DNA of 64,000 nucleotides from Arenimonas sp. Its GTDB lineage: Bacteria > Pseudomonadota > Gammaproteobacteria > Xanthomonadales > Xanthomonadaceae. The notes under the pieces were generated by a model. It did no database searches. It had not been told where the DNA came from and worked only from the letters and a program-made list of their open reading frames with translations. The position numbers were made by a program, and so were the translations under genes. The stretch is taken from NCBI RefSeq assembly GCF_022842045.1, contig NZ_JALHQI010000001.1:9774-73773 (forward strand), given 5' to 3'. Shown in pieces: positions 12,378 to 31,570 of this stretch; positions within the stretch are counted from its first letter, which is position 1; each line of letters begins with the position of its first letter.

Positions 12378-12392
12378 TCCCGCGCCGATGCT

Positions 12393-12564: not shown

Positions 12565-12595
12565 TTGACCTGTGTCCGACACTCAGGTTTACGGT
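12565..12595 (+). promoter_or_regulatory. MerR-type promoter/operator upstream of the merR-family gene
   Basis: TTGACC, 19-bp spacer with dyad (CCTGTGTC...GACACTCAGG), then TACGGT. Confidence 0.75.
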
Positions 12596-12622
12596 CTCCG
12601 GCAAGTTCTGCGGGAGCACGCG

Positions 12623-13138
12623 ATGACAGCCCATCTGCACAAGACCGAGCCGCCGATGACGGTGCGCCGCCTGGCGAAATCGGGTGGCGTGACGGTGCAC
12701 GTCGTGCGCAACTACCTGCGCCGCGGCCTGCTGCGGGCGGCCAGGCACACGGAGGCCGGCTACCAACTGTTCTCGACGGCGGAGCTGCATCGCCTGCACT
12801 TCATTCGCACGGCGCAGCGCTTGGGCTTCACTCTGACCGAAATCGAGGAAATCCTGCGGCGCAGTCGCCAGCGCCGGAGTCCGTGTCCGCTCGTGCGCGA
12901 CATCATCAGCCGTCGGCTGGCGGAAACCCGTGACCAGCTCGAGCAGCTCCTGGCGCTGCAAACGCGAATGGCGCAGGCCGTGGCCCAGTGGTCCCGCCTG
13001 CCCGACGCCGTGCCGACGGGTAATGACGTCTGCGCACTGATCGAAGCCGTCGCGGCCAGCGAGGCCGCGGTCGTCCCCAAATCCACCCCGCGGCGCCTTC
13101 TGGGGGGTCGCAACGCTTCAGAGGAGACGGCCTCATGA
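12623..13138 (+). CDS. MerR-family metal-responsive regulator
   Basis: N-terminal HTH MTVRRLAKSGGVTVHVVRNY, FIRTAQRLGFTLTEI, and Cys in SPCP and VCALIE. Confidence 0.88.
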   Translation: MTAHLHKTEPPMTVRRLAKSGGVTVHVVRNYLRRGLLRAARHTEAGYQLFSTAELHRLHFIRTAQRLGFTLTEIEEILRRSRQRRSPCPLVRDIISRRLAETRDQLEQLLALQTRMAQAVAQWSRLPDAVPTGNDVCALIEAVAASEAAVVPKSTPRRLLGGRNASEETAS

Positions 13139-13419
13139 GCCGCCCTCGTCCATCGCCATTGTCTTGCGGCCTGTCTCTGGCTGTAACGGCGGTCGCGCTT
13201 TACCTGGCATGCGCGCTGGTCGTGGCGTGGTCCCCCTGCACCCTGGCCGCCGGCCTGGGCCTGATCGTGCACGGCCTGAGCCCGTCGAGCCTCTCACCGG
13301 CGGTCGGCGAACTGCGCTGGAGCGCGGTGCTGATCGGTTCGCTCGCGATCGCGGGCCACGCCTTTGTGGCCGGCGCCCTCTTCGCCACTGTCAATCGCTT
13401 GATTGGAGGTCACCGATGA
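13135..13419 (+). CDS. Small two-helix membrane protein (DUF5676-like)
   Basis: Hydrophobic, ALYLAC...VHGL...W pattern; ATGA overlaps at both ends. Confidence 0.6.
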   Translation: MSRPRPSPLSCGLSLAVTAVALYLACALVVAWSPCTLAAGLGLIVHGLSPSSLSPAVGELRWSAVLIGSLAIAGHAFVAGALFATVNRLIGGHR

Positions 13420-13643: not shown

Positions 13644-13674
13644 TCCCGCCCCCTACCCGCCAGGAGTCCTTTCC

Positions 13675-14007
13675 ATGACGACGCCTACAACCCATCCCCA
13701 CGCGCCTGCCCCGCGACGGGCTCGAATGATTTTCTGGATCTTGATGGGATTCGCGGCTATTTACCTGCTCGCAGAGCACCGCCTGCACTTGTCCGGACTC
13801 TGGCGGTGGCTGCCGATCCTGATCCTGCTGGCCTGCCCGTTGCTCCACTTCTTTGGCCACGGGAGCCATGGCGGTCATGGAGGACACGGCGATCCTGACG
13901 CAGACGGCGCGGCCACCAACGGCGCGCCGCCGCCCGATGCGTCCACCCCGCCGGACGCGAGCCCACGGACGCCGCGCCCGCACACGCATCGCGGAGACCT
14001 GCCATGA
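13675..14007 (+). CDS. DUF2933-like His-rich membrane protein
   Basis: EHRLHL...LILLACPLLHFFGHGSHGGHGGHG. Confidence 0.75.
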   Translation: MTTPTTHPHAPAPRRARMIFWILMGFAAIYLLAEHRLHLSGLWRWLPILILLACPLLHFFGHGSHGGHGGHGDPDADGAATNGAPPPDASTPPDASPRTPRPHTHRGDLP

Positions 14008-14657
14008 ACCCCATTGATTCCGGCTACGGGCTGTGGGCGCTGGCCGTGCTCAACGCTGCGTTTTTCATCTTCTTCGCCTGGAGCTTCTACACCCCGCTCA
14101 CGACCCGGGACTGGCGCAGCTTCGGCTTGTATTCCGCGTTCGTCGTCGCGCTGTTCGCGGAGATGTACGGCTTCCCGCTGGGCCTGTTTCTGCTGTCGGG
14201 CTGGCTCTCGTCGCGCTTCCCGGAGGTCAACTGGCTCAGCCACGACGCCGGTCACGTGTTTGAGATGATGTTTGGTTGGCGGAGCAATCCGCACTTCGGT
14301 CCCTTCCACATCCTGAGCTTCGCTTTGATCGGCGGCGGCTTCTGGTTGCTCGCCCGCGCCTGGCCGGTGCTCTATCACGCGCAGCGTCGCGGTGAGCTGG
14401 CGCAGACCGGTCCCTACGCCCGCCTTCGGCATCCGCAGTACGCCGGGTTTGCGCTAATCATGACCGGCTTCCTGGTACAGTGGCCGACACTAATCACCCT
14501 AATGCTGTACCCGGTGATGCTCATCAGCTATGTGCGATTGGCGATCAATGAGGAGCGTGAGACGCGGGCACGTTTTGGTGCCGTCTACGAGCGCTACATG
14601 GCGGCGGTGCCGAGGTTCCTTCCGCGCCGTCGCCGGACGCAGGCGGTGGCCTCATGA
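14004..14657 (+). CDS. Isoprenylcysteine carboxyl methyltransferase-family membrane protein
   Basis: [46 protein letters not shown]. Confidence 0.8.
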
Positions 14658-17062
14658 AGGCCGATCCGAACACGACGGCAGTGAGAACCTGGCCGATCGG
14701 CGACATGCTGACCGAAGGCTGCGCCCGGACCCTGGCCGCCACGATCCGCGAACTGCCGGGCGTTGAGGCCGCGGATGCCAACTTCGCGACGGGCATGTTG
14801 CAGGTGCGCTACCTGCGCAGCGCGACCGAGCCCACCCGCATAGCGTCGGCTATACGCGCCTGTGGCTTCGCGTGTCGTGCCCCGTCGGCCGAGGCCAGCG
14901 CCCCGGCAGTTCCCCCCGCTGCCGGTCCCGCGCCCGACGACCATGCCGGGCACGGCAGCGGCCACGGGCACACAAAGCCCGCGGTCGCCGCGCCCCAGGC
15001 CAAGGTCGATCACGCGGGCCATGGTCCAGAGGCCTCCGCCAAGACCGGCTCAGACCCGCACGAGGGCATGCACCACGGAGGCGATCTGCACGCAGCAGCG
15101 GCGGACATGCGGCGGCGTTTCGTGATCGCCCTGGTGTTCTCGATCCCACTGTTCATCTGGTCACCGATGGGATTGATGAGCGCGCCCCCGACGCCGTTCG
15201 GCCTGACCGAGAACGTCTGGTTGTGGCTGTTGGCCAGCGGCGCGGTGATCTACCCGGGCTGGCCGTTCTTCACGGCGGCGATCCGCTCGCTGCGCCGCGG
15301 TGTGCTGGACATGGCGGTGCTGGTGCTGCTCAGCGTCGGCACCGGCTACGGCTTCAGCCTCGGGGCGACGTTCCTGTTCGACGGGCCCAATTTCTACGAG
15401 GCCTCCTCGGTCCTCATGACCTTCATCCTGCTGGGCCACTGGCTGGAAATGCGGGCCCGCGCCGGCGCCTCGGACGCGATGAAGGCCTTGCTAAAGCTCT
15501 CGCCGCCGCGGGCGATCGTGCGCCGGGACAACGTCGATGTCGAAATCGCCACCGACGACGTGCAGGTGGGTGACGTGGTCGTCGTGCGGCCGGGTGCCAA
15601 GGTGCCGGTCGACGGCGAGGTCCTCGAGGGCCAGTCCCAGGTGGACGAATCCATGCTCACCGGCGAATCGATGCCGGTGAAGAAGGTGCCGGGCTCGCTC
15701 GTGGTCGGCGGCACGATCAATCGCAGCGGCGCCTTCACCTACCGCGCCACCAAGGTCGGCGCCGACACCGCGCTGGCCCAGATCATCCAACTCGTCCAGG
15801 AGGCGCAGAACTCCAAGGCCCCGGCCCAGTTGCTGGCCGACCGCGCCTCGCAGTGGCTGGTGCTGGCGGCGATCGTGATCGGCGTGCTGACCTTCGCCGT
15901 TTGGTTCTGGTGGCTCGGCCAGCCCCTGCTCTTCGCGCTCACCCTGACCATCACCGTCTTCGTGATCGCCTGCCCCGACGCGCTCGGCCTGGCGACACCC
16001 ATGGCGATCATGATCGGCACCGGCATGGGCGCCCGGCACGGCATTCTGTTCAAGCACGCCGAGGCCGTCGAACAATGCGCGCGGCTGGACGTGGTGATCT
16101 TCGACAAGACCGGCACGTTGACGGTGGGCCAGCCCGACGTCGTGCAGGTGGTATCGGCCCCGGGGTGGGACGAGGTAACCCTCATCGATGTGGCGGCCGC
16201 CGTGGAAACCCACTCCGAACACCCGCTGGCCCAGGCGATCCTCAAGCACGCGGGCCCGGTCCAGGAGAGGGCGACGGACTACACCAACATCGACGGCCAG
16301 GGCGCCATGGGGCGCGTGACGGGTCGCTGGGTGCACTTGGGCAACCGGCTGCTGATGACCGCGCAAGGGGTGGCGCTGGACGCCCTGGACGCACAGGCCG
16401 AGGCGCTCAAGGGCGGCGGGCGCACCGTGATCTACGTCGCCGTGGATCGCAAGCTCGCCGGCGTGATCGCCATTGCCGATGCCATCCGCCCCACATCCCG
16501 GGCCACGATCCAGGAGCTTCACCGGCGCAAGGTAAGGGTGGCGATGATAACCGGCGACAACCGGCCCACGGCCGAGCGCGTGGCCGCGGACCTGGGCATC
16601 GACATCGTGCTGGCGGACGTACTGCCCGGCGAAAAGGCCGCCGAGGTCAAGAAGCTGCAGGCCCAGGGCCTGAAAGTCGGCATGGTGGGCGATGGCGTCA
16701 ACGATGCCCCGGCGCTCACGCAGGCCGAGGTCGGCTTTGCGATCGGTGCCGGCACCGACGTCGCGATCGACAGCGCCGACATAGTGCTGATGCGCAGCGA
16801 CCCCTATGACGTCGTGCGGGCGATCACGATCGCCCGCGGGACGCTGCGGAAAATGCACCAGAACCTGGCCTGGGCCGTGGGCTACAACGTCCTGGCCTTT
16901 CCGCTGGCCGCTGGCGTCCTCTTCCCGTTCGTTCTCTCGCCCGAAGTCGCCGCGCTGTCGATGTCCGGCAGTTCGGTGATCGTGGCTGTCAATGCGCTGT
17001 TGCTCAAGCGCCTACCCTTGGCGACGGTTTCGAGCGCCGCCGAGGATTCCCCCGCTGTTTAA
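14654..17062 (+). CDS. Copper-type P1B ATPase with a CPD intramembrane motif
   Basis: [36 protein letters not shown] and MSGSS; His-rich linker; degenerate N-terminal HMA domain. Confidence 0.9.
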
Positions 17063-17076
17063 CAGGAGCTCCACTC

Positions 17077-17487
17077 ATGAATATGAATCGTCTTATCCAC
17101 ACGCCCCCTCCGGCTAACCCGACCCTGCGCCAACGTGCTCGCCGCACCCTTGTCGGTGTGACCTTGCTGCTGGCCCTGGCTACCTCCGCCTACGCCCAGG
17201 AGAGTACGTACCGCCATGAAGTCGTCATGCGCGGCCAGGTCCTCGAAGCCGACGCTGGCGCGTTGGTCGTCTGCGTGGGCGAAGCCGATGGCGCCCAGGT
17301 TGGGCAGGTGCTCGAGGTCGTACGCCACAAGCGGGTCTCGCGCAGTCCCAAGGCGGCCGGTTCCCGCTTCCGGCGTGAGCCGATTGGGCAGGTCCGGATC
17401 ACGGAGCTGTTCGATACGCACTACGCGCAGGCCGAGGTTGTCACCGGCAAGCCCAAGGTCAACGACACCGTCGAGTTGATCCGCTGA
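17077..17487 (+). CDS. Hypothetical secreted beta-rich protein
   Basis: RBS AGGAG, signal-like segment ending AYA, then RHEVVMRGQVLE...VVCVG. Confidence 0.6.
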   Translation: MNMNRLIHTPPPANPTLRQRARRTLVGVTLLLALATSAYAQESTYRHEVVMRGQVLEADAGALVVCVGEADGAQVGQVLEVVRHKRVSRSPKAAGSRFRREPIGQVRITELFDTHYAQAEVVTGKPKVNDTVELIR

Positions 17488-17612
17488 TGTTCGATCGGTG
17501 CTCGCGGCACGGTCACCCTGCCCTGACCCTCAGGATCGGGCTCGCCACCGCGGGCGCCCTTCCCCGGCCGCTGTCAGTGCGGTCCCCTCGATTCTCTTAA
17601 AGGACCATCCCC

Positions 17613-19004
17613 ATGGCTTCCGCGTCAATGCGTTCCGTGCACTTCCTCGGCGCCGCCGGCACCGTCACCGGCTCGCGCTACCTGGTCCAGGCCGCGGGTC
17701 AGCGCATCCTGGTCGACTGCGGCCTGTTCCAGGGCTACAAGCAGCTGCGCGAGCGCAACTGGGCGGAGTTTCCGGTGGCGCCAGCATCCATCGATACCGT
17801 GCTGCTGACCCACGCCCACCTCGACCACGCCGGGTATCTGCCGGCCCTGGTCAAGCAGGGCTTCACCGGCAAGATCCTGTGCACCGACGCTACCCGCGAC
17901 CTGAGTCAGCTCCTGCTGCCCGACAGCGGCCACCTGCTGGAAGAGGAGGCGCGGTTTGCCAAGAAGAAGGGTTACTCCAAGCACGCCAATCCCCTGCCCC
18001 TGTACACGCAGCAGGATGCGATGACGTGTCTGACTCGCTTCGAGGGCCGCCCCTTCCTGGAGCCGCAATCCTTGGCCCCGGGCGTCAGCGCCCGCTTCAT
18101 CCCGGCCGGCCATATCCTCGGTGCCGCCCAGATCGCGCTCACCATCGACGGCCGCCGCCTGCATTTCACCGGCGACCTCGGCCGGGCCAGCGACGCGCTG
18201 ATGAAGGGCCCCGCGCCCTTCGAGGGTGCCGACGTACTGGTCTGCGAGTCCACCTACGGCAACCGCCGCCATCCCAGCGCCGACGCCGAAGCGGAACTCG
18301 CGCCGGTGATCAAGCGGGTCGCGGCCCGCGGCGGCGTGATCGTCATCCCGGCGTTCGCGGTCGGCCGTGCCCAGGCCCTGATGCTGCATATCGCGCGCCT
18401 GCGCCAGCGTGGCGAGATTCCGCGCGTGCCGGTCTACCTCAACAGCCCGATGGCGATCAACGCTACTGACCTGTATCACCGTCACCACGGCGAACACCAC
18501 GTGACCGACGCCGAGTGTCGGGACATGTATGAGCTCGCGACCATGGTGCGTACCGTGGAGGAGTCCAAGGCGCTCAACATGCAGCGCGGGCCGATGATCA
18601 TCATTTCCGCCAGCGGCATGCTCACCGGCGGGCGGGTCTTGCACCACCTCGTGGCCTTTGGCCAGGATTCGCGCAACGCGATCCTGCTGGCCGGCTACCA
18701 GGCTGGCGGCACCCGCGGCGCCGCGCTGGTGCGCGGCGAGAAGTCGCTGCGCATCTTCGGGCAGGAGGTGCCGATCCAGGCCGAGGTCGTCGCCATGGAG
18801 AGTTTCTCCGGCCACGCCGACAGCGAGGAACTGCTCGCCTGGCTGCGCCCGGCCCCGGTCACGCCCACGATGACCTACATCACGCATGGCGAGCCCGACG
18901 CGGCCGACGCCTTGCGCGGCCGGATCGAGCGTGAGCTCGGCTGGCGCTGCCGGGTCCCCGAGCACCTGGAAAGGGTGTCGCTCGGCGGCGAGGCCACGGC
19001 GTGA
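17613..19004 (+). CDS. Metallo-beta-lactamase / beta-CASP RNA-metabolising hydrolase
   Basis: FLGAAGTVTGS, DCGLFQG, THAHLDHAG, AGHILG, ESTYG, IPAFAVGRAQ, SASGMLTGGR, FSGHAD. Confidence 0.9.
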   Translation: MASASMRSVHFLGAAGTVTGSRYLVQAAGQRILVDCGLFQGYKQLRERNWAEFPVAPASIDTVLLTHAHLDHAGYLPALVKQGFTGKILCTDATRDLSQLLLPDSGHLLEEEARFAKKKGYSKHANPLPLYTQQDAMTCLTRFEGRPFLEPQSLAPGVSARFIPAGHILGAAQIALTIDGRRLHFTGDLGRASDALMKGPAPFEGADVLVCESTYGNRRHPSADAEAELAPVIKRVAARGGVIVIPAFAVGRAQALMLHIARLRQRGEIPRVPVYLNSPMAINATDLYHRHHGEHHVTDAECRDMYELATMVRTVEESKALNMQRGPMIIISASGMLTGGRVLHHLVAFGQDSRNAILLAGYQAGGTRGAALVRGEKSLRIFGQEVPIQAEVVAMESFSGHADSEELLAWLRPAPVTPTMTYITHGEPDAADALRGRIERELGWRCRVPEHLERVSLGGEATA

Positions 19005-20512
19005 GCGAGCACGCCCACACCCGCCTGCGCGTCGTGCGCGCCGGCATCGATACCTACCAGCAGCCGGTGGTCTACATGCACCGTGACTGCCCGGTCTGTC
19101 GCTCGGAGGGCTTCGCGGCGCTGACCCGGGTCCAGATGCACGTCGGCACGCGGCAGGTGATCGCGACGCTCAATGTCGTCACGGGCGATCACCTGGCGGT
19201 CGACGAGGTCGCGCTGTCGGACGCGGCTTGGTCGGCCGTCGGCCCCGACGCCGGGGCGTTCGCCACGTTCCAGCATCCCGAGCCGGCCGCCTCGGCCGGC
19301 GCCCTGCGCGCCAAGGTGTTCGGGGCGCGTCTGGACGACGCCGACTGCCTGGCCCTGATGCGCGATACCGCCGCCAATCGGCTGTCGGACATCGAGCTGG
19401 CAGCTTTCGTGACCGCGTGCGCGGGCGAGCGCCTGGATCACGGCGAAACCATCGCCCTGACGCGGGCCATGGTGGCCGTGGGCCAGACCCTGGACTGGGG
19501 CGGCGGCCCGGTGCTGGATAAGCACTGCGTGGGCGGCCTGCCGGGCAATCGCACCACGCCGATCGTGGTCGCGATCATCGCCGCGCTGGGGCATCGCATC
19601 CCCAAGACCTCCTCGCGGGCGATCACCTCGCCGGCCGGCACCGCCGACACGATGGAAGTCATGGCGCCGGTGGCGCTGGATCTGGCCGGGATGCGACGCG
19701 TGGTCGAACGCGAAGGCGGCTGCATCGTCTGGGGCGGCAACGTGCGCCTGAGTCCGGCCGACGACGTCCTGATCCGGGTCGAACGGCCGCTGGACTTCGA
19801 CAGCGACGGGCAGTTGGTCGCCAGCGTGCTGTCCAAGAAGGTCGCGGCCGGCGCGAGCCACGTGCTGATCGATATGCCCGTCGGGCCCACCGCCAAGGTG
19901 CGGTCCGACGCCGCGGCGCAGGCCCTGTCCGACAGGCTGACCGATACGGCGTCCGCCATGGGGCTGACGCTCGCCGTGCTGCGTACCGACGGCCGCCAGC
20001 CGGTGGGCATGGGCATCGGCCCCGCCCTGGAGGCCCGCGATGTGTTGGCGGTGCTGCGGGGCGCACCCGACGCACCGACCGACCTGCGCACGCGCGCCCT
20101 GGCCGTCGCCGGCGCGCTGCTGGACCTGGCGCCGGGCAGGCCGCCGGGCCTGGGGCTCGCTCTGGCCACGCAGACCCTGGACTCGGGCCGGGCCTGGGCC
20201 AGGTTCCTGGCCATCTGTGAGGCACAAGGCGGCTTCACCGAGCCGGGAGAGGCGCCCTTCCGGGCGCCGGTGGTGGCCACCCGCGCCGGGCGCGTGAGCG
20301 CGATCGACAACCGGCGTTTGGCCAAAGTGGCCAAGCTCGCCGGCGCACCAGGCGCGGCCTTGGCTGGCCTCGTCTGCACCGTGCGCATCGGTGATCCCGT
20401 CGCGGCCGGGCAGCCGCTGTACACCGTGCACGCCCAGTCCCCGGGCGAGCGCGACTACGCCTTGACCTACGCCCAGGCTCATCCCGACATCCTGACCCTG
20501 GAGGACCCATGA
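19001..20512 (+). CDS. AMP-phosphorylase-like member of the thymidine phosphorylase family
   Basis: N-terminal extension plus DKHCVGGLPGNRTT and KTSSRAITSPAGTADTMEV, closer to the archaeal AMP phosphorylase type than to E. coli DeoA. Confidence 0.85.
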   Translation: MSEHAHTRLRVVRAGIDTYQQPVVYMHRDCPVCRSEGFAALTRVQMHVGTRQVIATLNVVTGDHLAVDEVALSDAAWSAVGPDAGAFATFQHPEPAASAGALRAKVFGARLDDADCLALMRDTAANRLSDIELAAFVTACAGERLDHGETIALTRAMVAVGQTLDWGGGPVLDKHCVGGLPGNRTTPIVVAIIAALGHRIPKTSSRAITSPAGTADTMEVMAPVALDLAGMRRVVEREGGCIVWGGNVRLSPADDVLIRVERPLDFDSDGQLVASVLSKKVAAGASHVLIDMPVGPTAKVRSDAAAQALSDRLTDTASAMGLTLAVLRTDGRQPVGMGIGPALEARDVLAVLRGAPDAPTDLRTRALAVAGALLDLAPGRPPGLGLALATQTLDSGRAWARFLAICEAQGGFTEPGEAPFRAPVVATRAGRVSAIDNRRLAKVAKLAGAPGAALAGLVCTVRIGDPVAAGQPLYTVHAQSPGERDYALTYAQAHPDILTLEDP

Positions 20513-21426
20513 GCCGCGTCCTGATCCCCTTTCCCGATTTGCAGCCCCTGGCGTTGGAGGTCGGTTCGCGCCTGCAGGCTCGCGTGGCCCCCGTGGGCTG
20601 GCGCCGGTTCCCCGACGGGGAATCGCTGCTGACACTCGACGCCCGACTCAACGCAGTCGACGTGGTGCTGGTGGCCGGGCTGAGGAACGTGGACTCGGTT
20701 GCGCTGGCGCTGCGCTTTGTCGCCGAGACGGCCCGTGATCTGGGTGCCCGCTCGGTTGGCCTGGTCGCGCCTTACCTGCCCTACATGCGCCAGGACACGC
20801 GCTTCCATCCCGGCGAAGCGATCAGCGCGCCGATCTTTGCCCGGTTCCTGGAGCAAAGCGTCGACTGGCTGGTGACGGTGGATCCGCACCTGCACCGCAA
20901 TCCGCGCCTGGACGGGTTGTTCTCGATCCCGACCCGCCATGTCGCCGCGGCGGCGGCGATGGCGGCCTGGGTGCAGGCCAACGTCCCCGACGCGATCCTG
21001 ATCGGTCCCGACAGCGAATCGGCGCAATGGGTTGGCGATATCGCCGCGCGGGCGCAAGTGCCGTTCCAGGTGCTGGCCAAGATCCGGGAGGGCGATCGCT
21101 CCGTCCGGGTGAGCCTGCCCGATCCCGTCGCCGCCCGCGGCCGCACGCCCGTGGTGGTCGATGACATCGTCTCCTCGGGCCATACGATGATCGAAACCCT
21201 CAAGCATCTGGCCACGCTGGGATTGCCCCCGGCGACCTGCCTGGTCACCCACGCGGTCTTTTCCGAAGACGCCTACGAGCGCCTGCTCGCCGCCGGCGCC
21301 CGGCGCGTCGTCAGCACCGACACCATTCCCCACCCGGCCTGCAATGCCATCGCGATGGCGCCGGCGCTGGCGGTGGCCTGCGAAGCCCTGCTCGCCGGGC
21401 GCACCCCGTCCCTGGCCGCCCCGTGA
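20509..21426 (+). CDS. prs: Ribose-phosphate pyrophosphokinase-family protein
   Basis: RRFPDGES, PYLPYMRQD, VDPHLH, GPDSES, VVDDIVSSGHT. Confidence 0.88.
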   Translation: MSRVLIPFPDLQPLALEVGSRLQARVAPVGWRRFPDGESLLTLDARLNAVDVVLVAGLRNVDSVALALRFVAETARDLGARSVGLVAPYLPYMRQDTRFHPGEAISAPIFARFLEQSVDWLVTVDPHLHRNPRLDGLFSIPTRHVAAAAAMAAWVQANVPDAILIGPDSESAQWVGDIAARAQVPFQVLAKIREGDRSVRVSLPDPVAARGRTPVVVDDIVSSGHTMIETLKHLATLGLPPATCLVTHAVFSEDAYERLLAAGARRVVSTDTIPHPACNAIAMAPALAVACEALLAGRTPSLAAP

Positions 21427-21466
21427 GCCGCGCCGTCCACCGCCCCATCTGTGCCCTGGAGTTTCG

Positions 21467-23929
21467 ATGAACGACCTGACCTGCCCCGCCAGCGCCATCA
21501 GCGCCATTGACCAGCACCGGATTGACCAGTTGGCCCGGCGCTACGCCCAGGCCGAGCCGGCCTTCGCCGCGTGGGCCGCCGGCTATGGCGTCATCGAGCA
21601 CACGCCGCTCACGCAACTGCGAGTACGCGCCATGCTCGAGGAATTGGTCGCCACCGGCGCACTGCCTGACGCGGAAACTGGCTACCGGCGCCTGAGCGCG
21701 GCCGATCGCATTGCCAGCGCGGGCATGTGGCTGGTGGCGCATATGACCTACGCCCGGCGTGTCCGACTCGATGGCAGCCCCCTGGTCGCCGAGGATTTCA
21801 AGCCACAGCCCGAGGGGCACACCGGGGGCGCGTTGAACATGGTGCCCGCCTATGCCGGCTACCTGGCGATGAATGCGCTCGACGGCCGGACCCGCGCCTG
21901 GATGATGGGCCAGGGCCACTGCGTGGCGGCGATCGATGCGCTCAACGTGATCGTGGACAACATGAGCCCAGCGCATGCGGCCCGCTACGGCCTCGACGAG
22001 CCGCGGCTGGCGCGATTCGTGGGCGACTTCTACTCGTATGCGCTGACGCCCGAAGGGCGGCCGGCCTCGCCGCTGGGCTCGCACGTCAACGCCCACACCG
22101 CCGGCGGCCTGCAGGAAGGCGGATACCTGGGCTTTGCCGAGCTGCACTACGTGCATGCGCCGCTGCCCGGCGAGCGGCTGGTTGCGTTCGTCAGCGATGG
22201 CGCCTTCGAGGAACAGCGCGGCGGCGACTGGGCGCCGCGCTGGTGGCGCCCGGACGATTCGGGCCTGGTCGCGCCGATTATGATCCTCAACGGCCGGCGA
22301 ATCGAACAGCGCAGCCAGATCGAGCAGCAGGGCGGCGAGGACTGGCTGTACCGCCACCTGCGGCTCAATGGCTTCGAGCCCATTGGCCTGGACGGCCGTG
22401 ATCCCGCCAGCATCGCCTGGGGCATCCACGTCATCGAGTCGCGGCTGCAGGCCTGCACCGAAGCGGCCGCGCTGCATCCCGAGGGAGATTTCCGGATCCC
22501 GCTGCGCTATGGCGTCGCCGAAGCGCCCAAGGGCTTCGGTTTCCCCGGCGCCGGCACCAACGCGGCCCACAACCTGCCGCTGTCCGGCAATCCCCACCGC
22601 GATGCCACTGCCCGCGAGCAGTTCAATGCCGGCTGTGCGCCGCTCTACGTGCCGCCCGCCGACCTGCAGGCGGCGATCGTTTCCCTCAATACGCATGACG
22701 CCCAGAGCCGGCCGCGCGAGCGCGACCACGCGCTCGCGACCCGCCAGGTGAGGCTGCCGAACGTGCCTGAGCCGGCCTGGGCGGAGCCCGGCACCGTCGG
22801 CTCGCCGATGGCGGCGCTTGACGCCCAGTTCGTGCGTTTGGTGCAGGCCAATCCGCAGTTGCGCCCGCGCGTGGGCAATCCCGATGAGTTGAGAAGCAAC
22901 AAGCTCGACGCGACCCTGGACCTGCTCAAGCATAGGGTGCAGGTGCCGGAGGCCGGTGTCGCGGAATCCCGCACCGGCGCCGTGATCACCGCGCTCAACG
23001 AGGAGGCAGTGGTCTGCGCCGCCTTGGCGAACAAGGGCGGTCTCAATCTGGTCGTGACCTACGAAGCCTTCGCCCCGAAGATGCTCGGCGCCTTGCGCCA
23101 GGAGCTGATTTTTACCAGGCATCTGCGCGAGGCCGGACGGCCGCCGGGCTGGCTGGGCGTGCCGGTCGTACTGACCTCGCACACCTGGGAGAACGCCAAG
23201 AACGAGCAGTCCCACCAAGACCCGACCCTGGCTGAAGCCCTGCTCGGCGAAATGGCGGACGGCGCCCGCGTGTGTTTCCCGCCGGACGGCAACAGCGCCA
23301 TGGTGGCCCTGACGCACAGCCTTCGGGCCACGGGCACCATCACGGCGCTGGTGGTGCCCAAGCGCGAGGTGCCCAACCGGCTGACGCCGGCGCAGGCGCG
23401 CCTGTTGGCCGACGAGGGGCTGCTGTTGCTGCATGGCGATCCCGACACCGCGGCGGTGCTGCTGGCTGCCACCGGCAGCTACCAGCTGGGGGAGGTGTTG
23501 CGGGCCCATCAGCGTCTTCGCGCCTCGGGAATTGCCGCGGCGGTCATCTACATCGGCGAGCCGGGAAGGTTGCGGGCGGGACGCGATGCCCGGGAAGCCG
23601 CCTACGTGCTGGCTGATGCCGTGGTGCTGCGTCACTTTCCGGTGGGCACCCCGCGCGTATTCGTCACCCACACCCGGCCTGAGCCTTACCTGGGCGCGTT
23701 GCGCCGGATCGACACCGGCCCGGCCACGACGCGGGCGCTGGGTTTCGTCAACCAGGGCGGCACCTTGGATGTCCCCGGACTTCTGTTTGCGAACGGCTGC
23801 ACGTGGGCACACACGGTGGCGGCGGCGCTGGCGGTCCTGGATCGGCCGCTCGATGACGCCTTGCGCGCTGACGAGCAGGCGGCGCTGGCCGGCCACGGCG
23901 ATCCGACTTTGATCACCCGCCCCGCATGA
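21467..23929 (+). CDS. Divergent phosphoketolase (XFP-family, ThDP-dependent) protein
   Basis: EGHTGG, GQGH, EGGYLG, SDGAFEEQ, LNG..I, NPDELRSN, LNEEA, YEAF, HTWENAKNEQSHQDP. Confidence 0.8.
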   Translation: MNDLTCPASAISAIDQHRIDQLARRYAQAEPAFAAWAAGYGVIEHTPLTQLRVRAMLEELVATGALPDAETGYRRLSAADRIASAGMWLVAHMTYARRVRLDGSPLVAEDFKPQPEGHTGGALNMVPAYAGYLAMNALDGRTRAWMMGQGHCVAAIDALNVIVDNMSPAHAARYGLDEPRLARFVGDFYSYALTPEGRPASPLGSHVNAHTAGGLQEGGYLGFAELHYVHAPLPGERLVAFVSDGAFEEQRGGDWAPRWWRPDDSGLVAPIMILNGRRIEQRSQIEQQGGEDWLYRHLRLNGFEPIGLDGRDPASIAWGIHVIESRLQACTEAAALHPEGDFRIPLRYGVAEAPKGFGFPGAGTNAAHNLPLSGNPHRDATAREQFNAGCAPLYVPPADLQAAIVSLNTHDAQSRPRERDHALATRQVRLPNVPEPAWAEPGTVGSPMAALDAQFVRLVQANPQLRPRVGNPDELRSNKLDATLDLLKHRVQVPEAGVAESRTGAVITALNEEAVVCAALANKGGLNLVVTYEAFAPKMLGALRQELIFTRHLREAGRPPGWLGVPVVLTSHTWENAKNEQSHQDPTLAEALLGEMADGARVCFPPDGNSAMVALTHSLRATGTITALVVPKREVPNRLTPAQARLLADEGLLLLHGDPDTAAVLLAATGSYQLGEVLRAHQRLRASGIAAAVIYIGEPGRLRAGRDAREAAYVLADAVVLRHFPVGTPRVFVTHTRPEPYLGALRRIDTGPATTRALGFVNQGGTLDVPGLLFANGCTWAHTVAAALAVLDRPLDDALRADEQAALAGHGDPTLITRPA

Positions 23930-25533
23930 GCGCACCCCGACCCCTGCCCGCCGCGCGCCTGCCGCGAAGTCTGCAGATCGCTTTCGCCCTGGCTGGCTTC
24001 GGCTGGGTCTGGTGGCGGCGGCATCGCCGTGCTCCCGACACCCTGCCGGCCCGTCTGCGCCAGACCCTGGAAGGTCTGGGCACGACCTTCGTCAAGCTCG
24101 GCCAAGGCCTGAGCCTGCGCCGGGACCTCCTCCCTGCCCCGTATCTGGTCGAGCTGGAGGCCCTGCACGCCCATGTGCCGCCGTTCGAGTCGGCGCTGGC
24201 GGTGGCGGCGATCGAATCCGCGTTTGGCCAGCCGGTGGACGCGCTGTTCGCGGAGTTCGAGCCGGTGCCGTTCGCGGCCGCATCGGTGGCCCAGGTGCAC
24301 CGGGCGCAACTGCCCGATGGGCGCACGGTCGCGGTCAAGGTGCGTCGGCCCGGCATCGTGGCCCAGGTGCATGCCGATCTGCGATTGCTGCGGCGCTGTG
24401 TGCGTGTCAGCCAGTGGCTGGTGCCGGGCTTGCGGCGCTACCAGCCGCTGGATCTGATCGACGAGCTGGGTCAGTTCCTGCATCAGGAAGTCGACATGGT
24501 CCAGGAAGCGCGCAACATGCGGCGTCTGGCCAGCACCTTCGATCCCCTGCCCTACCTGACCCTGCCCCATGTGGTGGAGCCCTGGGTCGCGCCGGCCGTG
24601 ATCGTGCAGGAGTTCAGCCACGGCGCGGCGCTCGCGACCCGTAATCGCACGCCGCGTGGGCGCGAGCTGGCCGGCCTGCTGCTCGATGCCTACGTGCACC
24701 AACTCATGGGCGCCGGGGTCTTCCACGCCGATCCCCATCCGGGCAACCTGTTCGAACTGCCCGACGGTCGCCTGTGCTTCCACGACTTTGGTTCCATCGG
24801 TTTCCTGGACCCGGCATCGCGTACGGCCTTTGCGCAACTGATCGAAGGGCTGGTGGTGGATGACGCCTCGGCCGTGCTCGATGCCGTGGTGGCGATGGGC
24901 TTTGTCACCGGTCCGATTGACCGGCGGGCCTACGTGCGTGCCATCAGCGAAATCCTCAGCAGCCTGGCCACGCTGCCGCTGAACGAGTGGTCGATGGCGG
25001 ACGCGATCTGGCGCGTGGCGCGGATCGGCGCGGGCGAAAACTTTCGCCTGCCGCGCCACCTGTTGGTCCTGATGCGCACCCTGTTCCTAGCCGAGAACAC
25101 GCTGCGGGCCCTGGACCCGGACCTGGACCTGATGCAAGCCTTGGGGGCCCGCGCCCAGCACATGGTCCAGACCCTGCGACAACAGGCGGGGGGCCGGCCG
25201 ATGCACGAGCAACTGCTCAAAAGCGCCGAGCAGCTGCCGGTCGTGGCGATGCAGATCTTGCGACAGCTGCAACTGGACGAGGGACGGCCTGCGCTGTCGC
25301 TGCACCATCGGGGCCTGGAACCGCTGGAATCGACGCTGGCGCGCACCGGCAATCGCCTGGCCCTGGCCTTGGTGACGTTGGGACTGTATCTGGCGGGGTC
25401 AGTGATGATGCTGCACGGCGCCGGGCCGCGCCTGTGGGGCCATCTGCCGGTGCTCTCGGCGCTGGCGTTCGCAGCCGCGCTGGTCCTGTCCTGGCGGCTG
25501 GTGCGCGCCATCTCGCGCTCGGGGCACCTATGA
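23926..25533 (+). CDS. UbiB/ABC1 (AarF) atypical kinase-family protein
   Basis: LGTTFVKLGQ, AAASVAQVH, VAVKVRRPG, FHADPHPGN, DFGSIG; C-terminal TM helices. Confidence 0.88.
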   Translation: MSAPRPLPAARLPRSLQIAFALAGFGWVWWRRHRRAPDTLPARLRQTLEGLGTTFVKLGQGLSLRRDLLPAPYLVELEALHAHVPPFESALAVAAIESAFGQPVDALFAEFEPVPFAAASVAQVHRAQLPDGRTVAVKVRRPGIVAQVHADLRLLRRCVRVSQWLVPGLRRYQPLDLIDELGQFLHQEVDMVQEARNMRRLASTFDPLPYLTLPHVVEPWVAPAVIVQEFSHGAALATRNRTPRGRELAGLLLDAYVHQLMGAGVFHADPHPGNLFELPDGRLCFHDFGSIGFLDPASRTAFAQLIEGLVVDDASAVLDAVVAMGFVTGPIDRRAYVRAISEILSSLATLPLNEWSMADAIWRVARIGAGENFRLPRHLLVLMRTLFLAENTLRALDPDLDLMQALGARAQHMVQTLRQQAGGRPMHEQLLKSAEQLPVVAMQILRQLQLDEGRPALSLHHRGLEPLESTLARTGNRLALALVTLGLYLAGSVMMLHGAGPRLWGHLPVLSALAFAAALVLSWRLVRAISRSGHL

Positions 25534-26657
25534 GCGCGCCGCGCGACGTCCTGACGATTAATGTCGGTTCCGCGACCGTCAAGGCGGCGTACTACACCAT
25601 AGACGCGCAGGGCTTCCTGATCGCGCCGGTGATCCGCGCCAAGATCGCCGTCCTGCCCGAGGATGCCCACGCTGCCCGCAGCGCAGACCGCTGGTTGTCG
25701 CAGTTGCTGGTGCAGTTGCCGGCCGGGGCCGGGCAGCCCACGCGGGTGGCGCACCGGGTCGTGCACGGGGCGACCCGGCCGGGTCCAGCCCTCGTCACCG
25801 AGGCACTGATGACCGAGCTGACGGCGCTGACACCGTTGGCGCCCCTGCATCAAGCTCCGGCCCTGCGCTTGATCGAGGCTGCCGGGCATCGCTGGCCAGG
25901 GGTACCGCAGGTGGCTGCCTTCGACACCAGCTGGCATGCGAACTTGGCCCCGTGGGCCCGGCGCCTGCCGCTGCCGGCGTCCCTGCATGCCGCCGGCGTC
26001 CAACGCTACGGCTTCCACGGGCTGGCGTTTGCGTCGGTGATGCGTCAACTCATCGCCTTCGACCCCGCGCTGGCGACGGCCCGGCTGGTGCTGGTGCACC
26101 TGGGCGGCGGCTCGAGCCTGTGCGCGGTGGCCGACGGTCGCAGCGTCGACACCACCATGGGCCTGACCCCGCTCGATGGCGTCCCGATGGCCACGCGGTC
26201 GGGCACGCTCGATCCAGGCGTGGTGCTGTATCTGGCCCAGACCCTGGCCATGCCGCTGCCCGAGATCGAGCACTTGCTGTGGCGTGACTCCGGCTTGCGC
26301 GGCCTCTCTGGCGGCAGTGGCGACATGCGTGAGCTGTTGGCCGACACCGGCGAGCCCGCAGCCCTGGCCCGAGAGCACTACGCGATGCGGGTCGCCCAGG
26401 GGATCGCCGCAATGGCCACCAGCTTGGGCGGACTCGACGGGGTCGTGTTCTCGGGGGGCGTTGGGGCGGGCGCGGCAAGCGTGCGTGCCCGGATCGCCGC
26501 GCAACTGGGCTGGATGGGCCTACTGCTCGACTCCGACGCAAACCTTCACGGCGGCCCGGCGGTGCATGCCGGTGCCGCCACGATCAGCGCATGGGTCATC
26601 CAGGTCGATGAGGAATACGAACTGTTGCAGGCCGCCTTGGCCCTGGGGGATGAGTGA
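25530..26657 (+). CDS. ackA: Acetate/propionate kinase
   Basis: INVGSATVK, HRVVHG, FDTSWH, RYGFHG, HLGGGSS, DTTMGLTPLDG, TRSG.LDPG, FSGGVG. Confidence 0.88.
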   Translation: MSAPRDVLTINVGSATVKAAYYTIDAQGFLIAPVIRAKIAVLPEDAHAARSADRWLSQLLVQLPAGAGQPTRVAHRVVHGATRPGPALVTEALMTELTALTPLAPLHQAPALRLIEAAGHRWPGVPQVAAFDTSWHANLAPWARRLPLPASLHAAGVQRYGFHGLAFASVMRQLIAFDPALATARLVLVHLGGGSSLCAVADGRSVDTTMGLTPLDGVPMATRSGTLDPGVVLYLAQTLAMPLPEIEHLLWRDSGLRGLSGGSGDMRELLADTGEPAALAREHYAMRVAQGIAAMATSLGGLDGVVFSGGVGAGAASVRARIAAQLGWMGLLLDSDANLHGGPAVHAGAATISAWVIQVDEEYELLQAALALGDE

Positions 26658-27148
26658 GCAACGAGATGACAATGGCCCGCTCCCGCCCTGGCGAGGCGAC
26701 GGTCGCCCGATTGTTGGCTTTGGCGGACGTGCAGCTCGATGGCCCTCGGCCCTGGGATCTGCAGGTGCGCGATCCGGCGATGTTCACGCGCGTGTTGGCC
26801 CAAGGATCGCTTGGATTTGGCGAAGCCTACATCGACGGCGACTGGGTTGCGGCCGACCTTGATGATCGGGATTGGAACACCTCGGCGACGCTGCGCCTGC
26901 GGCCGCATCAGGCGCTCACGGCCGCGCAAAGCCAGATGATTCGCTTGGAGTACTTCGAAGGAACGGTGGGGTTGGCGCTGACGCGCCGAGCCCCCCTGGT
27001 CCCCTATCTCATTCAGGCGTATCGCGCGGCGCTGGTTCCGGACCGCGAGTTGCCGCCGGCGTTTTTGCTGCAGGTTCACGAGCCTGAGCAGTTGCCGCCC
27101 TGCGCTTGCTGGTCGGAGACACCAGAGGACGGGATGGGAAGGGTCTGA
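26654..27148 (+). pseudogene. Chimeric remnant: cyclopropane-fatty-acyl synthase N-terminus fused in frame to a WYL-regulator C-terminus
   Basis: RPWDLQVRD...QGSLGFGEAYIDGDW (cfa-like, ends near 26845), then DDRDWNT..LRLRPHQALTAAQSQMIRLEY...RRAPLVPYLIQ, resembling the BrxR/CapW-type C-terminal domain. Confidence 0.6.
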
Positions 27149-27347: not shown

Positions 27348-29331
<1,984 letters not shown>

Positions 29332-29344
29332 TGCGATCTCCTAA

Positions 29345-29695
29345 TCAGTAGAACAGGGGCATGAGGTAGGGAAATACGAGGGCGATCAGCACCAGGCAGG
29401 CGACCACCCAGAAGCTCGCCTTGTAGGCCATACGCACTCGGGGCACGGCACACACTTCGTCGGGCGCGCAGGCACGGGCCGGACGGAAGATGCGACGCCA
29501 TGCCAAGAGCAGCGCCGCGAGTGCCATGCCAATGAAGATCGGACGGTAGGGTTCCAGCCCGCTGAGGTTGCCAATCCAGGCCCCGGAGAAGCCCAACGTG
29601 ATCAGCACTAGCGGACCGAGGCAGCAGGTCGAGGCGAGGATGGCGGCGAATCCGCCAACGGCCAGGGCGCCGCGGCCATTGCCCAAGTCTGCCAT
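29345..29695 (-). CDS. merT: Mercuric ion transporter
   Basis: 116 aa; ASTCCLGPL, WIGNL..LEPYRP, CAPDEVC. Confidence 0.93.
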   Translation of the reverse strand: MADLGNGRGALAVGGFAAILASTCCLGPLVLITLGFSGAWIGNLSGLEPYRPIFIGMALAALLLAWRRIFRPARACAPDEVCAVPRVRMAYKASFWVVACLVLIALVFPYLMPLFY

Positions 29696-29729
29696 GGGAT
29701 TTTCTTCCGAAATTGTGCGTGATGCGCTA

Positions 29730-29760
29730 ACGTTACTTCCGTAGTCAAGTACGGAGTCAA
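29730..29760 (-). promoter_or_regulatory. mer operator/promoter (PmerT)
   Basis: Minus strand TTGACT-CCGTACTTGACTACGGAAG-TAACGT, near-canonical Tn501/Tn21 layout. Confidence 0.92.
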
Positions 29761-29765
29761 GCGGC

Positions 29766-30185
29766 ATGACGATCACGCGGGAAACCCTGACCATTGGGGC
29801 CTTCGCCAAGGCCGCCGGGGTCAACGTGGAGACCATCCGGTTTTATCAACGCAAGGGTCTTCTGCCCGAGCCGGACCGTCCCATCGGCGGCATCCGCCGC
29901 TATGGGCCGACCGACGTGGACCGGGTGAAGTTCGTGAAGTCCGCCCAACGCCTGGGTTTCAATTTGGACGAGGTCGCACAACTGCTCCAGTTGGAGGACG
30001 GAACCCACTGCCACGAAGCCGCCGACCTTGCAACAGCGCGGCTGGCAGACGTGCGCTTGCGGCTGACGGACCTCCAGCGCATGGAGTCGACGCTCGCCCA
30101 ACTGGTGAAGGCGTGCAGTTCGAGCCGAGGCAAGGTGACTTGCCCCCTGATTGCCTGCTTGCACCAGCATGCGCCAGCAGACTAA
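29766..30185 (+). CDS. merR: Hg(II)-responsive regulator
   Basis: [32 protein letters not shown]...GKVTCPLI; divergent from merT. Confidence 0.93.
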
Positions 30186-30303: not shown

Positions 30304-31374
30304 CTACAGCCAGCGCCTCGCCCACCAGCCGATCAGCTCCAGTCCCGGCGCGTACCACGGTCGCTGCGTCCAGGCCTCGGCTAGTACCTCCCGAGACTCG
30401 GCCAAATCTTGAACAAAATGATCTGCCAGCGTCGCATTGAGAGCGGGCGCCTGCCCGAGCAGGTTGATTTCGTCGTTCAGGAAGAAGCTGCGGTAGTCGA
30501 AGTTGGCGGTGCCGACTGTCGCCCAACCCCGATCGACCAGGGCTGTTTTTGCGTGCAGCACCCGGGGCTGGTACTCCCAGATGCGGACGCCGGCCTCGAG
30601 CATGTGTGCATACGCCGCCCGCGCGGCCCATTGCGCCAGCGGAACATCGCTCTTTCCCGGTACCAGCAGGCGGACATCCACGCCTCGGCGGGCGGCGCCG
30701 CAAAGGGCCCGCTGGCTGCGCCGGTCCGGCGCGAAGTACGGCGTGGTCAGCCAGAGCCGCTCTCGGGCCTGGTCGAAGGCGTCGGTGAACGCGCAGCGCA
30801 GGCGATGCCGGCAACGACGCGAACGGTTCGACAGCAACGCCAGGGGAGAACGCGCCGTGGGCACGGGACCACGGGGCGCCCGCGGGTACTCATCGAACAG
30901 GGTGATCGCCTCGGCCACCCGCGGGCCGGTCAGGCGGACATGGGTGTCGCGCCAGCGAGCCGCCCCCACGGCCCGCTGGGAATTGCGCCGGTCGAGGTTG
31001 AACCCGCCCAAGTACGCGACGGCGTCGTCGATGATCAGGAGTTTGCGGTGATTGCGGACGTGAAATCGCAAAGGCTTGTGCCAGGACCACGGACGACTCC
31101 AGTGCCATCCCACGCCAGCGTCCTTCATGGACCGAACCCGGCCCGGCGGAATCAGGCGCCACGAGCCCACGGCATCGATGCGGACCTGCACCCGCTTTCC
31201 AGAAAGGGCAGCGTCGGCCAGTGCGGTGAGCATCGGACCGCCGACCTCGTCATCGGCCACGATGTAACACTCCAGGCGTACCTGCGCAGCCGCCCCGGCG
31301 ATGTCCGTGCGCATCGCATCGTAGAGGGTGTCACCCTCCACGAAGACCGTGGTTGTTTCCGGTGCGGATGGCAT
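30304..31374 (-). CDS. Phospholipase D-family / cardiolipin synthase (ClsB-like)
   Basis: Two HKD motifs: RNHRKLLIID and LHAKTALVD...GTANFD.RS. Confidence 0.85.
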   Translation of the reverse strand: MPSAPETTTVFVEGDTLYDAMRTDIAGAAAQVRLECYIVADDEVGGPMLTALADAALSGKRVQVRIDAVGSWRLIPPGRVRSMKDAGVGWHWSRPWSWHKPLRFHVRNHRKLLIIDDAVAYLGGFNLDRRNSQRAVGAARWRDTHVRLTGPRVAEAITLFDEYPRAPRGPVPTARSPLALLSNRSRRCRHRLRCAFTDAFDQARERLWLTTPYFAPDRRSQRALCGAARRGVDVRLLVPGKSDVPLAQWAARAAYAHMLEAGVRIWEYQPRVLHAKTALVDRGWATVGTANFDYRSFFLNDEINLLGQAPALNATLADHFVQDLAESREVLAEAWTQRPWYAPGLELIGWWARRWL

Positions 31375-31570
31375 GGGGCGGCGGTTCGGCAAAGATTTGG
31401 CGCCCAGCCTAGCAGTGCGCCTCGGATTCTGGATCATTGGCCACGGAAGTTGGCGCGCACCTCGGCATCCCGGCCGGCGGTCAGCGGCTTGAGTATGCCG
31501 TCGTAGCGGAAAGCTTCGCGGTCGCAACCTTCAGCGCCCTAGGCACCATTCAAGTGCCTTGGGGACGGGA

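Follow-up and report, generated by a model that had tools for sequence, protein, structure and literature searches.

The 64,000-nucleotide stretch of Arenimonas sp. DNA analysed here (contig NZ_JALHQI010000001.1; the whole stretch is called the window) carries between positions 17613 and 26657 six co-directional genes on the + strand, each of whose families we confirmed with Pfam and NCBIfam. They encode a beta-CASP ribonuclease (RNase), a long-form thymidine/AMP phosphorylase homologue (TP), a ribose-phosphate diphosphokinase that makes phosphoribosyl pyrophosphate (PRPP) and is here called PRPP synthase (PRS), a divergent phosphoketolase-family enzyme (PK), an ABC1/UbiB-family protein (ABC1) and an acetate kinase (AckA). 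We propose that the block supplies the core enzymes of a stress operon, conserved and horizontally mobile, which would provide ATP from the cell's own RNA and nucleotides by substrate-level phosphorylation, without respiration, a reading to which we give about an even chance of being right. The gene content, its conservation and co-localisation, the intact motifs, the regulatory sites and a genome without alternative partners are directly established. The substrate of every step is what we infer, as is the conversion of ribose-1,5-bisphosphate to a ketopentose phosphate, for which there is no gene.

The proposed route would begin with the beta-CASP RNase, which by family should degrade RNA to 5'-nucleoside monophosphates (NMPs), followed by the long-form phosphorylase, whose similarity to archaeal AMP phosphorylase, including its loops, suggests that it would split an NMP into free base and ribose-1,5-bisphosphate; both assignments are reasonable. 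The class-III-like PRPP synthase would interconvert ribose-5-phosphate and PRPP, joining the ribose pool to base salvage. Using a pentose phosphate, the divergent phosphoketolase would, judging from its catalytic residues, form acetyl-phosphate and glyceraldehyde-3-phosphate, and acetate kinase would convert the acetyl-phosphate to ATP and acetate. This last step is the best supported of the route, and the hand-over from PK to acetate kinase is well supported. The common trigger would probably be that respiration no longer supplies ATP, whether because oxygen is low or because copper has done damage. ATP from the route may feed the co-encoded metal pump, an idea with which the P1B ATPase that regularly stands amid the enzyme genes is in keeping.

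Enzymes of the six-gene block

Four of the five junctions in the block are 4-nt start/stop overlaps, among them the ATGA shared by the ABC1 and acetate kinase genes, and the remaining one is a 40-nt gap upstream of the PK gene, whose ATG is preceded by GGAG. Third-position GC of the six frames is 0.85-0.91, and GC in the window is 0.62-0.72. We found no intergenic sigma-70-like promoter or intrinsic terminator in the block, the sole sigma-70-like match (21161-21188) lying within the PRS gene; likewise, along the whole run from the MerR-type promoter, no sigma-70-like promoter or terminator-like site falls between genes, all matches being within coding sequence. The six genes are the distal portion of an operon of about 12 genes (12565-27148) that reaches from this promoter to a truncated cyclopropane-fatty-acyl-phospholipid (CFA) synthase fragment (Table 1). 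The first-pass annotation of this DNA had described six consecutive, mostly overlapping genes with intact motifs, and their coordinates, families and catalytic motifs all hold; its choice of these six as a unit is sound insofar as the genes are real, but the block is not self-contained, as the operon also holds a copper ATPase and a MerR regulator.

The product of the first gene has the metallo-beta-lactamase (MBL) motifs together with the Beta-Casp and RMMBL domains, as a beta-CASP ribonuclease should. Its best solved relative is the Thermus thermophilus RNase TTHA0252 (PDB 2DKF; 250 bits over the full length), to which HAHLDH and the other metal-binding motifs align. The two enzymes have the same metal motifs; the gene of the window enzyme lies within a metabolic operon.

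The phosphorylase homologue encoded at 19001 scores above the cut-offs of two models of the long-form thymidine phosphorylase family, NF003338 (636 bits) and TIGR02645 (549 bits), and reaches 308 bits with the Thermococcus kodakarensis AMP phosphorylase 4GA5, compared with at most 109 bits with nucleoside phosphorylases. It has two loops in common with 4GA5, GG(V/L)PGN(K/R)T and PKTSSRAITS(A/P)AGTAD, which take the forms GGLPGNRT and PKTSSRAITSPAGTAD in the window. An N-terminal extension of ~85-95 residues precedes the TP core, which starts at residue 98 here and at residue 87 in 4GA5, and the AMP phosphorylase model TIGR03327 aligns residues 10-495 of the protein to its positions 3-488. Usable residue-level data on AMP phosphorylase were not found in the literature.

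The 20509 product passes the cut-off of the PRK07199-type model NF005537 (361.6 bits; cut-off 322). The class III enzyme of Methanocaldococcus jannaschii, 1U9Y, is its closest solved relative, and RFPDGE, RQD, the K-x-R loop and DDxxxSGHT are retained; a canonical housekeeping Prs is encoded elsewhere in the genome, on contig C86. The suggestion that this PRPP-synthetase-like enzyme might have a new substrate finds no backing, its catalytic motifs being ordinary and its sequence without any sign of new chemistry. TP and PRS genes are nearly always adjacent and translationally coupled.

The 21467 product exceeds the Pfam cut-offs for XFP (137 bits) and XFP_N (49 bits), XFP_C being undetected. 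With the NCBIfam phosphoketolase models, whose cut-offs are all 777 or higher, it reaches at best 128.9 bits (cut-off 962). We mapped its active site with a residue list from PMC10547157, a profile alignment to the Bifidobacterium longum phosphoketolase and a 14-sequence alignment of the clade. The clade keeps B. longum His64, His97, His142, His320, His553, Glu479, Tyr501, Asn549, Ser440, Gly155 and the Asp-Asn pair for Mg and thiamine diphosphate (ThDP). In the window enzyme the catalytic set is H118, H151, H206, H368, H583, E512, Y532, N579, S477, D244 and N275, invariant in the 14-sequence alignment; four pocket changes, Q321N, Q546N, H548K and R545E (B. longum numbering), are also invariant in the clade, and an extra N-terminal segment of ~80 residues sets the window enzyme apart from characterised phosphoketolases. 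An AlphaFold model (pLDDT 75.7) has the three-domain phosphoketolase fold. Its top 20 PDB matches are phosphoketolases, with TM-scores of 0.54-0.64 over ~770-850 aligned columns and transketolases lower, and the best full-length matches have TM-scores of 0.60-0.64 at about 20% identity. Sequence and model together make it very likely that the 21467 product is an active ThDP enzyme with phosphoketolase-type chemistry. The name given to this clade in public annotation, 'xylulose 5-phosphate 3-epimerase', is unsupported by fold and residues and is likely to mislead pathway reconstructions.

The last enzyme of the block matches the Pfam acetate kinase domain with 250-252 bits (cut-off 22) and falls below the NCBIfam cut-offs (321.6 against 486 bits for PRK07058, 245 against 293 for another model); its N-terminal 68 residues diverge. 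No second acetate kinase match was found in the genome, the assembly of which is 95% complete. No stand-alone phosphotransacetylase was found in this assembly, the only PTA domain being the C-terminal part of a MaeB-type malic enzyme, so the PK-like enzyme is the only visible source of acetyl-phosphate for the island AckA, itself the only visible sink. Phosphopentomutase (DeoB) was not found in it either, so ribose-1-phosphate made by a nucleoside phosphorylase would have no obvious outlet. There is also no match to RuBisCO_large in the assembly and no RuBisCO gene in the related loci described below, in keeping with the initial view that the RuBisCO branch is absent. The 23926 product scores 298.9 bits with the UbiB equivalog model, below its cut-off of 487.55, and is an ABC1-domain paralogue.

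Conservation, mobility and control of the gene set

Searching with a profile of the PK-like protein, we detected relatives in 584 or more species genomes and kept the best 80 loci. Co-occurrence was counted in the 52 of these 80 PK-seeded loci that are at least 20 kb long, by mapping the window proteins onto them. Partners are frequent (TP in 40 loci, PRS in 43, RNase in 37, AckA in 38 and ABC1 in 32), all five occur together in 20, and a P1B ATPase lies within or adjoining the module in 37, often between enzyme genes; these raw counts are inflated and overstate independence, which weakens our case, because many loci of the same order are near-identical copies of one island. In the tree of PK loci such copies of one recently spread island make up ~25 Lysobacterales loci, and near-identical island PK proteins occur in Stenotrophomonas, Pseudoxanthomonas, Thermomonas and Thiobacillus. 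The association persists in at least 12 deep clades with differing gene orders. The order is AckA-PK-RNase-TP-PRS in Kordiimonas (L064), TP-PRS-AckA-PK in Acidiferrobacteraceae (L082), TP-PRS-PK-RNase in Metapseudomonas (L071), RNase-TP-PRS-ATPase-PK in Nisaea and Roseovarius, and ATPase-PRS-PK-MBL-TP, without AckA, on an Agrobacterium conjugative plasmid; Burkholderiales have AckA-MerR-CFA synthase-PK, with MgtC-GAPDH-ABC1 and DUF6629-PRS-TP-RNase on the opposite strand (GAPDH, glyceraldehyde-3-phosphate dehydrogenase).

An even sample of 301 genomes from the window's order gave a second view of the association. TP is present in 57 of these genomes and the PK clade in 16; both are present in 10, where they are always within 1.5 kb of each other. 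AckA is found in 15 of the 16 PK-positive genomes, compared with 92 of 285 PK-negative ones, and within 5 kb of the PK gene in 10 of the 16. The first-pass annotation had called RNase, phosphorylase and PRPP synthase a trio that recurs in bacteria, which is what many genomes contain, and had paired phosphoketolase with acetate kinase, a pairing that is strong in the order-level sample. It had also held that the proposal would fall if the two halves rarely co-occurred across genomes; they are found together far above chance, in shuffled orders.

Two further kinds of locus bear on the chemistry. In a stress locus on a Sphingobium plasmid, the same TP and PRS subfamilies are accompanied by a PRK07058 acetate kinase and by a phosphoketolase of the canonical kind (1328 bits); the window PK-like enzyme is 26% identical to this canonical enzyme, and the displacement of one paralogue by the other argues that the divergent PK plays the phosphoketolase role. 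Ten Burkholderiales loci encode a type II (archaeal-type) phosphorylating GAPDH (NF003251, 446 bits) that adjoins the ABC1 gene and is accompanied by MgtC/DUF4010 and DUF6629 proteins. Such a GAPDH would be a natural consumer of the second phosphoketolase product. GAPDH-bearing versions are seen in L057, L060-L063, L074 and L077, for example at 14630-15685 of L063, minus strand.

Identical PK-like proteins occur in different genera, in one case in Luteimonas, Cognatiluteimonas and a Pseudomonadales metagenome-assembled genome (MAG) (L018, L019, L020, L021) and in another in Hydrogenophaga, Xylophilus and a Burkholderiales MAG (L060, L062, L063, L074), a sign that whole islands have spread horizontally very recently. 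These proteins and the copies on conjugative plasmids bear out the original view of the element as mobile. The closest relatives of the block, with 95-96% protein identity, are in Arenimonas caeni and one further Arenimonas genome, and one of five other sampled genomes of the genus contains it. When plasmids were searched at the DNA level with the whole block, matches were confined to the phosphorylase region (72-78% identity), after which protein-level searches were adopted.

Control of the module appears to be by low oxygen in some lineages and by a MerR-type regulator, together with copper pumps, in others. The MerR-type promoter that heads the window operon is conserved as CTTGACCTGTGTGCGGGACACAGGTCTAGCGT 5' of the MerR gene in many Lysobacterales loci, and its 19-nt spacer is typical of MerR-activated promoters; the regulator itself scores below the cut-off of every metal-specific equivalog model. 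The window promoter and its counterparts before the MerR genes of L018, L021, L023, L031 and L033 have the 19-nt spacer in common and, as operator, the perfect palindrome ACCTGTGT-N5-ACACAGGT. The window also contains two FNR/FixK-type palindromes (TTGACGNAGGTCAA), at 5214-5227 and 11904-11917, where shuffled sequence predicts 0.05, each ~40 nt before a small secreted Cys/His-rich open reading frame (ORF). Read-through from the second of these ORFs (11955-12377) into the MerR operon is uncertain because a strong hairpin follows it (about 12385-12420). Across 1.43 Mb of related loci there are 61 FNR-type boxes (TTGAY-N4-RTCAA) against ~1 expected, scaled from 0.05 per 64 kb, a count inflated by duplicated loci. 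In Lysobacter, Pseudoxanthomonas and Vulcaniibacterium, whose FNR-box loci also encode universal stress proteins (USPs), the distance from the box is 67-68 nt to the phosphorylase start and 74-112 nt to PK, and boxes also precede RNase and ABC1; the ABC1 gene has a box of its own in L039 and L043. Metal-island versions, the window among them, have no FNR-type boxes adjoining module genes and have the conserved MerR-type promoter instead.

Published expression data from Bradyrhizobium point the same way. There, the operons bll3117-bll3116-bll3115 (annotated as TP family, PRS and MBL hydrolase) and bll2518-bll2517 (annotated as phosphoketolase family and acetate kinase) have FixK2 boxes; their expression falls 7- to 31-fold when fixK2 is deleted (PMC9104804), and transcripts and proteins alike rise in microoxia (PMC6515984). 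Neither paper gives a functional interpretation of these operons. The setting of hypoxia or metal-poisoned respiration first suggested for the block is thus plausible, from the FNR/FixK2 boxes on one side and the MerR-type promoter on the other.

One pathway or several functions

Several observations weigh against a continuous route from RNA to ATP. No ribose-1,5-bisphosphate isomerase, phosphatase or kinase was found in any of the 80 related loci. The first-pass annotation had itself remarked that no enzyme for ribose-1,5-bisphosphate is encoded, a gap that we confirm and extend to all 80 loci, so that of its RNA-to-ATP pathway the co-occurrence, the motifs and the PK-AckA pairing stand, but the ribose-1,5-bisphosphate link is missing throughout. 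The genome's single IF-2B/MtnA-like gene is on another contig, and with its protein as the query no homologue was found in the 80 loci. The PRPP synthase step consumes ATP and misfits a simple catabolic line. The 19001 product, first labelled AMP phosphorylase-like, justifies that label in its active-site loops and N-terminal extension, but at 418.7 bits it misses the TIGR03327 equivalog cut-off of 535 and belongs to the sister family TIGR02645 instead. The substrate of PK may differ from those of the characterised enzymes because identity to them is ~20-26% and the pocket changes are invariant in the clade. Gene content varies as well: 47 of the 57 TP-bearing genomes in the order-level sample have no PK-like gene, a Thermomonas variant without TP and PRS has RNase and PK genes coupled by a stop/start overlap, and further variants have no AckA (the Agrobacterium plasmid) or no RNase. 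Finally, our literature searches brought up neither a paper in which the gene set is given a function nor a functional study of it or of its enzyme subfamilies.

The pathway also leaves the ABC1 protein, the ICMT-like methyltransferase, the CFA synthase and the embedded ATPase unexplained. The UbiB-family gene, originally counted as a pathway member, has no place in it. ABC1, the methyltransferase and the CFA synthase, with the nearby phospholipase D (PLD)-like lipid synthase and the MgtC/FtsH of related loci, point to a parallel membrane-maintenance theme and not to pathway steps.

Some of these observations would suit two separate functions that share a regulon, an account that we consider unlikely but take seriously. 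The trio would then serve nucleotide rebalancing or salvage in growth arrest, freeing bases and making PRPP for NAD and nucleotide resynthesis, and PK with AckA would be an independent fermentative sugar-phosphate bypass, the two being clustered by their usefulness under the same stress. It would accommodate the 47 TP-bearing genomes without a PK-like gene, the occurrence of the RNase-TP-PRS trio without PK in housekeeping-like or USP-rich contexts, the two distinct loci of the Bradyrhizobium operons, the normal, anabolic motifs of the PRPP synthase and the absence of an encoded connecting enzyme. It does not lead one to expect that PK would be interleaved with nucleotide genes across deep clades, as it is in Agrobacterium (PRS-PK-MBL-TP), in L071 (TP-PRS-PK-RNase) and in Thermomonas (RNase-PK), nor the close spacing of TP and PK in every sampled genome that has both.

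The presence of a PRPP synthase would be better explained if the phosphorylase homologue were a TrpD-fold phosphoribosyltransferase working with its neighbour, to which it is adjacent and coupled; the thymidine phosphorylase fold is common to anthranilate phosphoribosyltransferase, and the trpD model does match. The enzyme would make a nucleotide-like metabolite, or break it down with pyrophosphate, and the cluster would be biosynthetic or pyrophosphate-energy-conserving instead of burning RNA by phosphorolysis. The match is of only 30 bits, however, the active-site loops hardly differ from those of AMP phosphorylase, which uses phosphate, and no acceptor-making genes are conserved in the loci, and we regard this explanation as improbable. 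It is also very improbable, in our judgement, that the block serves metal resistance directly, with acetyl-phosphate as phosphoryl donor or signal for a P-type ATPase or for metal-responsive response regulators and with a substrate other than RNA for the metallo-hydrolase. Acetyl-phosphate can phosphorylate P-type ATPases and response regulators in vitro, the operon contains a P1B ATPase or is fused to one in the 37 loci counted above, a MerR-type promoter heads the operon and the whole window is a metal-resistance island. Yet USP/FNR-box loci that have no metal genes contain this enzyme set too, as does a microoxic FixK2 regulon, and acetate kinase, which consumes acetyl-phosphate, is a regular member.

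Within the proposed RNA-to-ATP pathway, one long shot would change the nature of the PK step. The PK clade might be a 'bisphosphoketolase' that cleaves a 1-phosphorylated ketopentose, for example ribulose-1,5-bisphosphate derived from the phosphorylase product, to glyceraldehyde-3-phosphate and acetyl-phosphate, with elimination of the C1 phosphate in place of the usual dehydration step. Bearing on this are the retained catalytic residues, the four invariant pocket changes and the position of the PK gene between PRS and TP in several lineages; an isomerase would still be required, and none is in the cluster. If this were true, the module would be a self-contained non-carboxylating bacterial pentose bisphosphate pathway with a new carbon-carbon cleavage step.

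The operon, its island and related systems

Table 1. Members of the window operon, six-gene block first, and associated regulatory sites
Feature	Position	Strand	Remarks
beta-CASP metallo-beta-lactamase-fold ribonuclease, TTHA0252 type	17613..19004	+	Beta-Casp, RMMBL, Lactamase_B
long-form (archaeal-type) thymidine/AMP phosphorylase homologue (TP)	19001..20512	+	NF003338, TIGR02645
PRK07199-type class-III-like ribose-phosphate diphosphokinase (PRS)	20509..21426	+	family cut-off passed; paralogue of housekeeping Prs
divergent phosphoketolase-family ThDP enzyme (PK)	21467..23929	+	XFP_N + XFP
ABC1/UbiB-family atypical kinase-like protein	23926..25533	+	ABC1 201 bits; in 32 of 52 loci
acetate/propionate-family kinase (AckA), diverged from PRK07058 type	25530..26657	+	Acetate_kinase Pfam domain
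MerR-family regulator	12623..13138	+	MerR_1 + MerR-DNA-bind domains, two Cys; in 28 of 52 long loci
DUF5676 two-transmembrane protein	13135..13419	+	
DUF2933 small membrane protein	13675..14007	+	recurrent in related loci and on plasmids
ICMT/PEMT-like membrane methyltransferase	14004..14657	+	in 26 of 52 long loci
P1B-type copper-translocating ATPase, N-terminal HMA domain	14654..17062	+	TIGR01511, 605 bits
136-aa protein, signal-peptide-like N-terminus, without known family	17077..17487	+	directly 5' of RNase gene in 19 of 52 loci
truncated CFA synthase, N-terminal fragment	26654..27148	+	match restricted to residues 9-71
MerR-type promoter	12565..12595	+	TTGACC, 19-nt spacer with imperfect inverted repeat, TACGGT
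FNR/FixK-type palindrome TTGACGTAGGTCAA	11904..11917		5' of small secreted Cys/His-rich ORF 11955-12377

As a whole, the window is a metal-resistance island, equipped with resistance-nodulation-division (RND) pumps, three P-type ATPases, a cation diffusion facilitator (CDF) transporter and a mer operon, besides genes for TniB/Mu-type transposition. The truncated CFA synthase that ends the operon (Table 1) recurs as a truncated fragment in Arenimonas caeni, and the full-length enzyme (CMAS) is a recurrent member of 14 related loci. A mer operon (27348-30185; merA at 27348-29042 on the minus strand, small mer genes and merR) is inserted between this fragment and the PLD-like lipid synthase gene at 30304-31527; in Arenimonas caeni (L006, 15188-16974) the flanks are identical in kind and the mer genes are absent. 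Further along lie a fusion of a cytochrome c domain with an FTR1-type iron permease domain (32050-34020) and a CDF cation-efflux gene (34108-34818), and a Tn5053/Tn402-like transposition module, TniB with a Mu-type transposase, occupies the island's far side (56016-58767, minus strand).

Some other recurrent families accompany the related loci. A conserved 470-aa protein (f11), encoded divergently beside the AckA gene at 17365-18777 of L014 (minus strand) and in 15 other Lysobacterales loci, has no Pfam or NCBIfam match and looks unrelated to sugar phosphates. Family f29 is a LolA-like periplasmic protein, and family f34 proved to be an antisense artefact. Apparent PK-TP fusions, very long open frames over TP in some genomes, were rejected as out-of-frame high-GC artefacts because the frame arithmetic does not fit.

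The families of the parts are already known, and among known systems the archaeal nucleotide-ribose pathway comes closest. The pentose bisphosphate pathway of T. kodakarensis (AMP phosphorylase, ribose-1,5-bisphosphate isomerase and form III RuBisCO) has the long-form DeoA-type phosphorylase with N-terminal extension in common with the window and likewise channels nucleotide ribose into central carbon metabolism, whereas the window loci have no isomerase or RuBisCO, the partners being RNase, PRPP synthase, phosphoketolase and acetate kinase instead. The haloarchaeal non-carboxylating pentose bisphosphate pathway (PMC9700705) indicates that another carbon-carbon cleavage after ribose-1,5-bisphosphate can take the place of the RuBisCO step; it differs in keeping ribose-1,5-bisphosphate isomerase, with other enzymes after it, and in having neither phosphoketolase and acetate kinase nor acetyl-phosphate. 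With the phosphoketolase/acetate kinase pathway (the heterolactic or bifid shunt; B. longum, Lactococcus lactis and cyanobacterial enzymes) the window shares catalytic residues, fold and AckA adjacency, but its PK is tied to nucleotide-degrading genes, not to sugar uptake, and scores far below the cut-offs.

Among bacterial stress loci, the FixK2 operons of Bradyrhizobium diazoefficiens are likened to the window by annotation, which names the same families, but they form two loci off any metal island. The low-oxygen-activated (lxa) locus of Burkholderia cenocepacia, a stress locus of the accessory genome, serves persistence in anoxia; it encodes acetate kinase and universal stress proteins and has ribose/nucleoside-related phenotypes (PMC3721108). 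It contains phosphotransacetylase, class II ribonucleotide reductase and ribokinase, and the paper mentions no phosphoketolase, long-form phosphorylase or PRK07199-type PRS; this gene content rules it out as a carrier of the same gene set.

If the proposed RNA-to-ATP pathway is true, many Pseudomonadota carry a transferable emergency-power pathway that makes substrate-level ATP by burning the cell's RNA under oxygen shortage or when respiration is poisoned by copper. Bacteria would then have a counterpart to the archaeal nucleotide-ribose pathway that relies on another cleavage enzyme and may keep the co-encoded metal pump running. The pathway would also give functions to large misnamed families ('xylulose 5-phosphate 3-epimerase', 'thymidine phosphorylase family protein') and would account for FixK2 targets without an assigned function in a model rhizobium.

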